A stretch of 64,000 nt of DNA, taken from NCBI GenBank assembly GCA_963796685.1, contig CAWCMR010000018.1, positions 1 to 64,000 of the forward strand, read 5' to 3'. A program made the translations under genes and the position numbers. Below, piece after piece: positions 31,327-49,910 of this stretch (position 1 is the stretch's first letter; every line of letters begins with the position of its first letter). The notes under the pieces were generated by a model, which did no database searches, was not told the DNA's origin, and saw only the letters and a program-made list of their open reading frames with translations. This DNA comes from an uncultured delta proteobacterium. Lineage in GTDB: Bacteria > Myxococcota_A > Polyangia > Fen-1088.

Positions 31327-33447
31327 CTAGCCGGCGGCGCGCTTGGATCCGCCGGCGTCCTTTTCTTTCTTGGTGCGGAACTCGAGGATCATGGCCTCGC
31401 GCTGCTGCTTGGGGAGCTCGGCGTAGCGCTTGAACTCCATGCTGAACTCGCCCTTGCCTTGGGTGGCCGAGCGCAGATCGGTCGAGTAGCCGAACATGTC
31501 CGCCAGGGGCACCTCGGCCATGGCCTGCACGTAGGTCTCGTGCTTCTCCGTCGACATGATGGCGCCACGGCGCTGGTTGAGCTGGCCGATGACCGCGCCC
31601 TGGAACTCCTCGGGGAACTGCACTTCGACCAGCATCATGGGCTCGAGGATCGTGGGCTTGGCCTTGTTGTAGGCCTCGCGGAAGCCCATGAGGGCGGCCG
31701 TGCGGAAGGCGATTTCCGACGAGTCCACGGGGTGCGAATTGCCGTCGTTGACCGCGCAGCGAACGCCCACGATGGGGAAGCCGATGAGCGGGCCCTTGCG
31801 CATGGCCTCTTGGAAGCCCTTGTCGCAGGCCGGGATGAACTCGCGCGGGATGGCGCCACCCTTGATCTCGTCGAGGAACTCGTAGCCCGTGGGGTGGTCC
31901 ATGGGCAAGGGCTCGATGTAGCCGGCCACCTTGCCGTACTGGCCCGAGCCGCCGGTCTGCTTGCGGTGGGTGTAGCTGTACTCGCCGCGCTGGACGATGG
32001 TCTCGCGGTACTTGACCTGGGGACGGCCGGGAATGACCACGCAGTTGTACTCGCGCTTCATGCGCTCGATGTAGATTTCGAGGTGAAGCTCGCCCATGCC
32101 GCTGATGATGGTCTGGCCCGATTCCTCGTCACGGTGCACGCGGAAGGTCGGGTCTTCCTTGGTGAAGCGGTTGAGCGCCTTCGAGAAGTTGGTGGCCGTG
32201 GTCTTGTCCTTCGGCTCGACGGCGAGCGAGATGACCGCGTCCGGCACGTGCATGGAGGTCAGGGTGTAGTTGACCTTGCCGTCGGTGAAGGTGTCACCCG
32301 AGGCGCAGTCCACGCCGAACAGGGCCACGATGTCGCCGGCCTCGGCGGAGTCGATGTCTTCCATCTCGTCGGCGTGCATGCGCACGAGACGCGGCACCTT
32401 GATCTTCTTGAGGTTGGACGAGCAGTTGACGATGAAGTCGCCCTTGCTCACCTTGCCCTGGTAGATGCGCATGTAGGTCAGTTGGCCATAGCGCCCGTCT
32501 TCGAGCTTGAAGGCCAGGCCCACGAAGGGCTTGCTGGCGTCGGAGACCAGGATGACCGGCTCTTCATGGTTGTTCTGATCGAGGGCCTTGTTTTCGACCT
32601 CGAAGGGATTGGGCAAAAAGGCGTTGACGCCGTCGAGCAGAAGCTGCACGCCCTTGTTCTTGTAGGCCGAGCCGATGAAGACCGGCGTGGCTTTGAAGGC
32701 AACCGTGGCGCGGCGAATGGCCGGGACCAAGTCCTCGGGCGTGATGGGTATCTCGGCCAGGAACTTTTCGGCCAGGATGTCGTCGACGTCGGCGATGGCT
32801 TCGATCATGCGCGTGTGGGCCGCCTTGGCCGTCTCGAGGAGATCGGCCGGGATCTCGGCTTCGCGCAGATCTTCACCGCTGTCGCCCTCGAAGTAGATGG
32901 CCTTCATCTTGATGAGATCCACCACGCCCTCGAAGCGATCCTCGGCGCCGATCTGGATCTGGAGAGAGATGGGGCGTAGGGCCAGCTTGTCCTTGAGCTG
33001 CGCGGTCACGCGCTCGGCGTTGGCGCCCGCGCGGTCCAGCTTGTTGATGAAGGCCAGGCGCGGCACCTTGTACCGGCGCATCTGGCGGTCCACGGTGTAC
33101 GACTGCGACTGCACGCCGGCGACGCCGCAAAGCACCAGCACCGCGCCATCGAGTACGCGCAGGGCGCGCTCGACCTCGATGGTGAAGTCCACGTGCCCCG
33201 GCGTGTCGATCAGGTTGATGGCATGGCCATTCCATTCCGCGCTGGTGGCCGCGGACTGGATGGTGATGCCCTTCTCGCGCTCGAGATCCATGAAGTCCAT
33301 GGTCGCCCCGACCCCCGACTTGCCCTTGACCTCTTCGATTTTGTGGATCTTCCCCGTGTAGTAGAGGATGCGCTCGGACAGCGTGGTCTTGCCCGAGTCG
33401 ATGTGAGCGGAGATTCCAATGTTTCTGACCTTCTCGATGGACGCCAT
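31327..33447 (-). CDS. fusA: elongation factor G
   Basis: [47 protein letters not shown]. Confidence 0.98.
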
Positions 33448-33615
33448 TACTTCCTAACCTGTTCTTTCTTGAGTTGGCCCACCCCGGGCCAAGGGACCTT
33501 GCTAAAGGCGCGGCAGTTTAGCGAGCAGCGCCCCAAAAGCTAGATAAATTTCTTCGTCAGGTGCGCTACTTTTCTGCAACCCCACGCAATCGCCAAGGCC
33601 CGGAACCGATAATTT

Positions 33616-33785
33616 TCTAAGGAAGCCAGGAAAGCAGGAAAAGAGAGAACAAGCGGGATAACCGGCAGTGTCATCGGCGCTTCACCGGCTGGACCCGTCG
33701 GTGGCTTCGGTCAACGCTCGAAATCAAGCGCGTCATTGCCTTCCAACGGCCCTACCCCCATTCCTGGATTCCTGGCTTCCTTAGA
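33616..33785 (+). mobile_element. inverted-repeat-bounded mini-element containing a deleted GxxExxY gene
   Basis: 25-bp IR (23/25) TCTAAGGAAGCCAGGAAAGCAGGAA / TTCCTGGATTCCTGGCTTCCTTAGA; interior encodes ITGSVIGA and TLEIKRVIA. Confidence 0.65.
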
Positions 33786-33841
33786 GGTTAAGCACCCTAC
33801 GTCGTCTCTGCCGTTGCATTTTCGCCGGCAAGTCGCGTCTA

Positions 33842-34801
33842 ATGCCCGGCGTGCCAGCGAAATCCGATCTGTTTGACAAGGGTTCCTCCCAGCTCCACCT
33901 GAATATTGCCACGGACAAGTCTCTCACGAGAAAACAGGAGGTCGAGACTCCTTATTCGCGACCGTTCTTGAAATGGGCGGGTGGCAAGACCCAGCTCTTG
34001 CCGCAGCTGGCGCGTTTCTATCCGCCGAGGGGTAGCGTCAAGCGTTACATCGAACCCTTCCTTGGGAGTGGCGCGGTGTTCTTCCACTTCAAGGCCCTGG
34101 TCGAACCCAAGGCCGCCATCCTGTGGGACAACAACCGCGAGCTCGTCGAGACCTTCCAGGCCGTGCGCGACGACGTGGAACAGGTGATCAAGCTACTCAA
34201 GAAGTACCAGAAGCGGCACAGCAAGGATTTCTTCCTGGCCATGCGCGAGAAGGCCCCGCTTTCCATCGCCACCAAGGCCGCGCGCCTCATCTACCTGAAC
34301 AAGACCTGTTTCAACGGGCTCTACCGCGTGAACAGCCGCGGCGTCTTCAACGTTCCGTTCGGCAGGTACGCCAATCCCGGCATCTTCAACGAGAACGGGT
34401 TGCGCAGGACCTCCGAGCTGTTGCGCGGCGCACGGATCGAGGCCGAGGACTTCAGGTTCCTCAAGGTCGAGGCCAGGAAAAACGACTTCATCTACTTCGA
34501 CCCTCCCTACCATCCGCGCTCGAAGACGTCCTTCTTTACGGCCTACACGCGGGATCTGTTCGGCGAGACGCATCAGCGGAAACTGGCGGAGCTCTATCGC
34601 GCGCTGGACAAGAAGGGCTGTTTGCTGATGCTGTCGAACAGCGATACGCCGCTCATTCGCGAGCTGTACAAGGATTTCGACATCCGCGAGGTCTCCGCCC
34701 GGCGAAACATCAACTCGAAGGCGGATCGGCGCGGTTCGATCTGCGAGCTGGTGGTGCTGAACGCGAAGCTGGTGCAAGCTTCCAGCCGTGGGCGAGCGTA
34801 A
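33842..34801 (+). CDS. dam: Dam-family (D12 class) DNA adenine methyltransferase
   Basis: FLKWAGGK, YIEPFLGSGAV, LNKTCFNGLYRVN..FNVPFG, DPPY, LSNS. Confidence 0.93.
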   Translation: MPGVPAKSDLFDKGSSQLHLNIATDKSLTRKQEVETPYSRPFLKWAGGKTQLLPQLARFYPPRGSVKRYIEPFLGSGAVFFHFKALVEPKAAILWDNNRELVETFQAVRDDVEQVIKLLKKYQKRHSKDFFLAMREKAPLSIATKAARLIYLNKTCFNGLYRVNSRGVFNVPFGRYANPGIFNENGLRRTSELLRGARIEAEDFRFLKVEARKNDFIYFDPPYHPRSKTSFFTAYTRDLFGETHQRKLAELYRALDKKGCLLMLSNSDTPLIRELYKDFDIREVSARRNINSKADRRGSICELVVLNAKLVQASSRGRA

Positions 34802-49661: not shown

Positions 49662-49910
49662 CTAGAGCACCGAACGAGTTGAATTCCTTCTGAATCCAAG
49701 GGATTGCCTGGCGCCGCCGAGGTCGCTGTGCACAGCGCGCACGAGCCCTTTTTCACCACAGAGAACACAGAGGGCACAGAGGCCAGGAAGAGTAAGGGTT
49801 TTCCGGATCTCGATCCGAACCCTTCCTTTCTCACCCGTCTCCGTGTTCTCTGTGTCCTCTGTGTTTAGAATCCGGAAATTGCCCGGTTTTCAACCCGTTC
49901 GGTGCTCTAG
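49662..49910. mobile_element. MITE-like element, copy 2, with nested CACAGAG palindrome
   Basis: CTAGAGCACCGAACGAGTTGAA...TTCAACCCGTTCGGTGCTCTAG, same TIR as 22410. Confidence 0.82.
49754..49866. repeat. CACAGAG-type periodic palindromic element, copy B
   Basis: CACCACAGAGAACACAGAGGGCACAGAG...CTCCGTGTTCTCTGTGTCCTCTGTG with the same TCCGGATC..GATCCGAACCCTTCC core as 31213. Confidence 0.8.

Follow-up and report, generated by a model that had tools for sequence, protein, structure and literature searches.

The sequence analysed here is a stretch of 64,000 nt (the window; positions 1 to 64,000 of contig CAWCMR010000018.1, assembly GCA_963796685.1) from the genome of an uncultured delta proteobacterium, labelled G000, and the feature under study is a 170-base unit located at positions 33616-33785 of its plus strand. 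The unit lies in the spacer between fusA, which encodes elongation factor G and is located on the left on the minus strand (31327-33447; TIGR00484, 967.3 bits), and the gene of a Dam-family adenine methyltransferase (dam), which is located on the right on the plus strand (33842-34801; TIGR00571, 270.8 bits). It is bounded by two inverted arms of 25 nt each (33616-33640 and 33761-33785), which are 92% complementary (23/25), lie 120 nt apart and enclose scraps of a gene of the GxxExxY family. The unit is here interpreted as probably the eroded core of a non-autonomous cargo transposon of the ISKra4 type with a length of approximately 0.6 kb (a 'mobile insertion cassette', MIC), which would have been moved in trans.

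The 25-mer of the arm has two matches in the whole window at up to three mismatches, while 0.00 were expected according to 100 shuffles. The left arm is purine-rich, is built from 8-nt units (GGAAGCCA / GGAAAGCA) and carries a TAA in the frame of the gene, and the right arm is pyrimidine-rich and terminates in the gene-frame stop TAG. Between the arms, GITGSVIGA (frame of 33592), LHRLDPSVA (33590) and TLEIKRVIA (33591) are read, each in its own plus-strand frame, and both the arms and these translations are present as they had been quoted in a first-pass annotation of the locus. The window copy is without an open reading frame (ORF); remnants in three frames are left, and the start codon, the GxxExxY motif and the core of the gene have been deleted. 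By alignment with longer copies of the same repeat in G000, to which the window copy is 82-96% identical at the DNA level, the interior was divided into a leader remnant directly after the left arm (33641-33658), followed by a deletion in which approximately 41 nt of family sequence, with the ATG among them, are gone, an N-terminal codon remnant (LTGSVIGA; 33659-33681; 90.9-100% identity over 22-23 nt to the copies at C25:1266907, C23:8784 and C8:752301), a mid-gene remnant in another frame (LHRLDPSVA, the HRLDLLV region; 33682-33708; with positions 33663-33695 being 84.8% identical to positions 313-344 of C25:1266907) and a C-terminal codon remnant in the third frame (PTLEIKRVIA..QRPYP; 33709-33760; 90-93.5% identity to C14:163881 and C5:108348). 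Profile searches did not recover these pieces, which are too short for a hidden Markov model: no Pfam family was obtained at E ≤10 for two translations of the window copy, and a genome-wide search of G000 with PF13366 yielded three places, the window copy not being among them. The pieces are nevertheless regarded as GxxExxY remnants because of the 82-96% DNA identity to the longer copies, two of which match PF13366.

In the 7.3-Mb assembly of G000, the arm has 48 matches at up to five mismatches, which form 20 convergent pairs spanning 101-355 bp, plus one-sided fragments; the arms are thus multi-copy, and the proposal of the first-pass annotation that the unit derives by internal deletion from an arm-bracketed GxxExxY gene is supported by the longer copies. 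These translate to both ends and middle parts of one GxxExxY protein, including ...PTLEIKRVIASQRPYHPFLASWLP*, they contain the GxxExxY motif, and gene-frame stops are located at the outer edges of their arms (TAA on the left, TAG on the right); the two copies matching PF13366 reach 45 and 33.4 bits (cut-off 22). An intact gene between arms of this type was found neither in G000 nor in G002, a further genome of the genus, and the sole intact GxxExxY gene of G000 has different arms. Internal deletions differ from copy to copy: 18 of the 20 copies in G000 have a deletion pattern of their own, and two pairs share a structure, one of them as a segmental duplication. Since the patterns are unique in 18 of the 20 cases, the copies are to be seen as independent wrecks of full-length insertions, each of which decayed after inserting. 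One short deletion structure that has been amplified, as is expected of a MITE (a miniature transposable element with inverted repeats), was not observed among the 20 copies, and the MITE-like derivation that had been proposed for the unit is not supported.

Comparison of the copies further revealed that conserved sequence continues outside the arms, reaching GGGTGCCAAACTGATTTGG... on the left after approximately 60 nt and ending in ...CTTCTGTCAAGCACCC on the right after approximately 24 nt, and that these outer flanks are found solely beside arms. The outer termini of the family therefore read GGGTGC...GCACCC, and the arms, which had been taken for the ends of the mobile unit, lie well inside it. 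The end sequences GGGTGCCAAACTGA / GGGTGCTTGACAGA match at 10 of 14 positions, as counted by eye. At the window copy, homology to the family extends from approximately 33583 to 33797, i.e. beyond the 170 bases originally delimited, and the right end only is kept. On the left, the inner part of the subterminal region (the shell; 33583-33615) is 81-87% identical to the stretch left of the arm in C14:163881, C23:8784, C25:316441 and C25:1266907, and the outermost approximately 27 nt, including the GGGTGCC... terminus, are gone; the left copy of the target duplication was lost along with this end. On the right, a terminal remnant (GGTT/AAGCACCC; 33786-33797) corresponds to the right end of the transposon with a deletion of approximately 12-14 nt inside it. 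The nine host bases beside it (33798-33806) are where the right-hand copy of a target duplication of 9 bp would be expected, as judged from the family of G004 described below and from the G000 copy at C8:562220-562442.

At the orthologous position in G002 the latter copy is absent; CTTCTTCGT is present there once and the sequence reads ...GCTTCTTCGTCAAC..., and in G000 the insertion is flanked by CTTCCTCGG on one side and CTTCCTCGT on the other side, an 8/9 duplication. In a second orthologous comparison, another copy was found to be common to G000 and G002, and in a third the region proved to be too variable for a reading. Across 13 genomes of the genus, the arm pattern has 46 matches in G000, 22 in G002 and one in G001, and none in the other ten genomes. 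With a clean empty site and an occurrence in 3 of the 13 genomes, the mobility that had been supposed for the family is supported.

A fresh sister family was found in another genome of the genus, G004, which has 43 matches to PF13366, compared to at most three in each of the other 12 genomes; in a sample of 301 genomes from the phylum, matches occur in 47, with at most nine per genome. The copies in G004 are 99-100% alike and represent a sharply bounded unit of 0.58 kb with 23-nt terminal repeats (21/23; GGGTGC...GCACCC) and inner arms of 17 nt (16/17), which enclose the GxxExxY gene; the ORF of this gene continues through the right end of the element. The terminal pattern has 73 matches in G004, corresponding to 35 complete elements and three single ends. 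Target duplications of 9 bp are perfect at 31 of the 35 elements, offset by one base at one and changed by two mismatches at two, and one element is without a duplication. Among 31 copies with correct orientation, two of 33 rows having been left out as wrongly oriented, frameshifts are present at different loci, one shared 1-nt deletion in eight copies and one shared 1-nt insertion in three. Frameshifted copies have therefore spread, the gene is not required in cis, and a requirement for GxxExxY in cis was rejected. At up to one mismatch, the terminal 14-mer forms no other convergent pair in G004, and the extra matches of this 14-mer fall in unrelated repeats. As a side observation, two of the elements are arranged in tandem (L070 175-1341; G004:C17:62354-63520) with 9 bp between them, and the 9-mer CCGTGGCGC is present on the left, in the middle and on the right.

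The G004 elements show a target preference. TTG begins exactly at offset 16 from an end in 15 of the 35 elements, and the other offsets between 0 and 54 have an average of 0.67 and a maximum of three elements. The window copy shows the same spacing on its right side, where GCACCC (33792-33797) is followed by TACGTCGTC, TCTGCCG and the hexamer TTGCAT (33814-33819), which starts 16 nt past the element end, resembles a -35 box, is located ahead of dam and is kept in 6 of 6 relatives compared. Of nine other right ends listed for G000 and read by eye, one has TTG at offset 16. For Mutator-like elements, Guerillot et al. (2014; PMC3942029) report that the inverted repeats measure 18-39 bp and have a terminal C and that the direct repeats are 8 or 9 bp long; for members of the ISKra4 group (p-MULT 4 of the Mutator superfamily, with DDE transposases), they report insertion sites that are located upstream of sigma-A promoters, at 13-17 bp from the junction of repeat and genome. 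The G004 cassette shares with these elements the terminal repeats of approximately 23 nt which start with G and end with C, the duplications of 8-9 bp and an insertion site at a short, fixed spacing upstream of a TTG box that resembles a -35 box, and the preference for TTG at offset 16 fits the promoter-proximal targeting published for ISKra4.

ISKra4 elements with matching ends were found in metagenomes. A 21-nt terminal pattern is present at 26 metagenome loci, on at least four contigs it forms convergent pairs with a spacing of 2.0-2.15 kb, and the pairs enclose an ORF of 466-475 amino acids (aa) together with a second ORF of approximately 145 aa. Two of the larger ORFs were scored and reach 242-244 bits with NF033572, the ISKra4 transposase (cut-off 205). 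According to tblastn, the transposase or the second ORF adjoins the repeat at 13 of 25 distinct metagenome loci (nine contigs) and GxxExxY at one; one of the metagenome ISKra4 elements has ends that are identical to those of the G004 cassette at 22/23 and 23/23 positions. G004 itself contains a 2120-bp ISKra4 element (L209 1252-3371), whose transposase has 477 aa (256.7 bits) and which is flanked by a perfect 9-bp duplication (GGAAAGCGG). The ends of the G004 cassette are identical or nearly identical to those around true ISKra4 transposases. In an exact scan of species-representative genomes for the terminal repeat, one assembly accounted for 41 of 46 loci and the remaining five were single matches in four other assemblies; neither a transposase gene nor a GxxExxY gene adjoins these five. 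Within the genus, genes of the ISKra4 family have 39 matches in G010, 15 in G004, two in G000 and one in G002, and two other elements of the genus start with GGGTGC or GGGCGC and duplicate 8-9 bp. Two further observations concern these elements. The second ORF (L179 1632-2096 and homologues) is conserved in ISKra4 elements with the ends of the cassette and has no match in Pfam or NCBIfam. Extra genes of unknown function in some ISKra4 elements are mentioned in PMC3942029. The expansion in G010 includes one type in approximately 25 identical copies, and G010 is without the arm family of the window.

For the window's own family, we infer movement by a transposase of the ISKra4 type from the architecture shared with the G004 elements, the GGGTGC termini, which are partly like the G004 ends, and the empty site in G002. 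The ancestral element would have consisted of a GGGTGCC... terminal repeat, a leader of approximately 60 nt, the 25-nt purine-rich arm, the GxxExxY gene, the 25-nt pyrimidine-rich arm and approximately 24 nt ending ...GCACCC. The mover would be an ISKra4-family (Mutator-like DDE) transposase that is supplied by another element and binds to the outer terminal repeats; it would duplicate 8-9 bp of the target, and its landing sites would often lie 16 nt upstream of a TTG... box resembling a -35 box. The arms would belong to the cargo, i.e. to the GxxExxY cassette, and not to transposition, and the nuclease would be cargo as well and not the mobiliser. Insertion of the window copy, 16 nt upstream of the TTGCAT that precedes dam, would have taken place in the lineage of G000 after its split from G002 and G010, and the copy would subsequently have lost its left terminus with adjoining spacer DNA as well as three internal pieces of the gene, being now immobile and non-coding. 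The mobility observed, with terminal repeats, fixed duplications, target preference and bursts of copies, is explicable without the nuclease.

Several observations weigh against this interpretation. At the fusA-dam site, relatives do not provide the clean empty site that was looked for: host sequence matches to approximately 33582 on the left and resumes at approximately 33806, with approximately 100 bp of unrelated DNA in between, and insertion plus deletion must therefore be assumed at the window copy. The five G000 copies with both ends recognisable comprise one with an unshifted 8/9 duplication, two with 7/9 and a shift of 2 nt, and two without any duplication. Since a strict sigma-70 scan finds no promoter at TTGCAT, the offset is claimed for this hexamer and promoter activity is not. 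No ISKra4 element was found whose ends are those of the window's own family; the ISKra4-like element of G000 (1567 bp, two copies) has different ends and 8-bp duplications, and that of G002 shares GGGTGC alone. For the G004 family, the ends of the 2120-bp ISKra4 element agree with those of the cassette at 19/22 and 17/22 positions, i.e. they differ at three and five positions, and this element is therefore at most a candidate mobiliser of the cassette. The two ISKra4 copies from metagenomes in which both flanks can be read show no matching 9-mers. Finally, the choice of a GxxExxY gene with its own arms as cargo is left unexplained. The feature is ordinary in kind, and a separate puzzle is attached to its cargo.

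This puzzle is the starting point of an alternative in which the arm-bounded cassette is a separate selfish or self-maintaining module that enters, or is repeatedly captured by, unrelated transposons and intergenic sites, the ISKra4 shell being a mere vehicle and the nuclease acting on the hairpin of its own arms in DNA or RNA; it is put forward tentatively. Similar arms are indeed found in three settings, namely in ISKra4-type shells, as a gene-less hairpin in an element of approximately 247 bp with CTAGAGCACCGAACG... (CTAG...) ends, and without a shell between a comM-like gene and recA. The sole intact GxxExxY gene of G000 is located at this last site and has arms of the type (CAGAGGACA)n, which also form 16 gene-less hairpin pairs in G000. 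In G040, the cassette lies in a third kind of repeated unit: five copies of a repeat of 0.6-0.7 kb (L084-L088) contain a GxxExxY gene between other arms, (CGCAGAGCC)x3, have an ORF's 3' end (...RPFRWTYTGRALQA*) at their start and finish with ...CTGTACTAG. The arm-bounded cassette therefore occurs inside several unrelated vehicles. On the other hand, no insertion at the level of the arms was demonstrated, and an empty-site comparison for the 247-bp hairpin element of the window yielded none. The comM-recA cassette is old and merely decaying; among relatives, the cassette is present at this site in G004, remnants are present in G001, G008 and G011, G012 has none and G007 has no more than a short unassigned stretch. 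Moreover, the capture of cargo by transposons needs no special mechanism. That the cassettes form a nested second layer of selfish DNA, a module defined by its hairpin with its own mechanism of entry into the centres of transposons and into tight gene junctions, appears rather unlikely on this evidence; if true, the ride on ISKra4 would account for the bursts of copies and not for the origin or spread of the cassette.

The settings compared above include some details worth recording. The intact ORF between the comM-like gene and recA (G000:C25:838674-839021; L001 1402-1905, minus strand) encodes 167 aa, fills the space from the stop codon of the comM-like gene to the ribosome-binding site of recA and contains both arms, which are translated to TEDTEDTE... 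and ...SVSSVSSVSS. The 16 gene-less hairpins of G000 are palindromes of approximately 90-105 bp with the structure ACCA-(CAGAGGACA)n...(TGTCCTCTG)n-TGGT, e.g. at C20:8173-8268 and C15:150934-151027, and about seven of them sit within a larger CTAGAGCACC... element. The 247-bp element of the window is located at 49663-49909, has the ends CTAGAGCACCGAACG.GTTGAA / TTCAACCCGTTCGGTGCTCTAG and carries its gene-less (CAGAGGACA)n-type hairpin in the centre (49759-49861); copies of it account for at least 53 matches in G005 and at least 32 in G002. The upstream ORF end of the G040 repeat, which may resemble the C-terminus of a transposase, was considered as an insertion sequence (IS) family gene; it is a mere remnant and the family assignment failed.

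A role of the arms in RNA, where they would pair as in the intervening sequence of 23S rRNA so that the cassette would be cut out of, or insulated from, the host transcript, is doubtful, and it would be compatible with the ISKra4-type cargo transposon favoured here. The arms exactly bracket the ORF, with gene-frame stops at both outer edges, purines predominate in the 5' arm, to which the 3' arm is complementary, and the 170-base unit folds as single-stranded DNA at -36.2 kcal/mol (z = -3.6), better than 200 of 200 shuffles, none of which folds equally well. The layout of an ORF within a stem also resembles the Coxiella intervening sequence (PMC4990558). These points are countered by the absence of any Rfam family in positions 33000-34300 and by the fact that an inverted repeat folds regardless of its function.

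That the GxxExxY nuclease itself mobilises the arm-bounded unit, with the 170-bp unit as a MITE-like derivative, as the first-pass annotation had proposed, is very improbable: gene and arms do travel jointly in the two families of the genus and at the comM-recA junction, the elements contain no transposase, no other convergent pair of the terminal 14-mer was found in G004, and the ORF fills its element and continues past the right end, as transposase genes often do, but the boundaries of homology and insertion fall outside the arms, the fixed 9-bp duplications and 23-nt terminal repeats are features of ISKra4, with a DDE transposase located between the same ends in other elements, the TTG at offset 16 agrees with the ISKra4 transposase group, frameshifted copies spread, the G000 copies decayed separately without an amplified short derivative, and we know of no PD-(D/E)XK protein that performs strand transfer alone. 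As a whole, that interpretation is partly supported, namely for the remnant nature and mobility of the unit and not for its ends, its MITE-like amplification or its mobiliser.

The ISKra4-type cargo transposon can be set beside several known systems. It differs from the ISKra4 elements themselves in that it is without a transposase gene and holds a GxxExxY gene with inner inverted arms, and the parent of the window's family was not found. In MICs such as MIC231, the ends of an insertion sequence surround a non-transposase gene and the cassette is moved in trans. The elements described here are like MICs in having insertion-sequence ends, a cargo that replaces the transposase, target duplications and several copies, and they are unlike MICs in that one and the same family of small nucleases serves as cargo, in two subfamilies that have diverged and that each have inverted arms of their own. 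With bacterial MITEs they share the lack of autonomy, terminal repeats, target duplications and an intergenic location, whereas the short copies did not arise here by amplification of one deletion derivative. In REP/RAYT systems, the RAYT is an HUH Y1 transposase, and REPINs are without target duplications; a small gene between inverted repeats and many gene-less hairpin copies in the same genome are common to REP/REPIN-RAYT and the present case, from which the former differs in that here the gene is a PD-(D/E)XK family member, 9-bp duplications are present and the signature at the ends outside the arms is of the DDE type. The 23S rRNA intervening sequences of Coxiella (PMC4990558) likewise contain an ORF within a stem-forming inverted repeat and are seen as selfish DNA, whereas the cassette lies outside rRNA and encodes a different protein family. 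The Ssn GIY-YIG nucleases with their genome-wide NTS/SRM repeats (PMC11893778) also combine a small nuclease gene with a short repeat that is multi-copy in the same genome; their nuclease fold is different, and binding or cutting of the arms by GxxExxY would be hypothetical here.

A full-text literature search on GxxExxY / PDDEXK_3 gave nothing on mobility or arms, no published ISKra4-derived cassette and no GxxExxY gene as cargo were found in the literature search, and no solved structure was found to be related by sequence to the GxxExxY protein. The formation of cargo cassettes by ISKra4-type elements, with promoter-proximal targeting being kept, is a small addition to known biology. Outer ends beyond the arms may have been overlooked around other arm-flanked GxxExxY genes, and G004, with 35 fresh copies and known matching transposases, represents a natural system for questions about the nuclease and its arms.

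Several other elements of G004 were considered as autonomous forms or parents of the cassette and were set aside. Two versions of the GxxExxY element with a length of 2 kb owe this length to the nested insertion of a 1428-bp DDE_Tnp_1 element that is unrelated, and they were rejected as autonomous forms. A 10-copy DDE_Tnp_1 element with CAGGG... ends and 10-bp duplications was rejected as a parent on account of its other ends, and two further single-copy elements have no GGGTGC ends. IS1, which had come into consideration through a likeness of the ends, was dropped; PF03400 has one weak match in G004 (25 bits), in a gene without room for ends. Apart from this, the 1428-bp element (L043 873-2300, L044 340-1767) has the ends CATAGGCATTAACCCAA, 11-bp duplications and approximately eight copies in G004, and its two insertions in the terminal region of GxxExxY elements are each located at a CCCC.GC... 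stretch. A 1288-bp element (L168-L177) with the ends CAGGGTCATCGCATC and 10-bp duplications is present in ten identical copies, and a 187-bp element with related ends (L045 633-819) sits nested within one of the GxxExxY elements, where its duplication is 12 bp long. The gene with the PF03400 match, an IS1-like DDE gene (L047, approximately 1255-2124; G004:C7), is single and has a hypothetical gene on one side and a gene for a DNA methyltransferase on the other.

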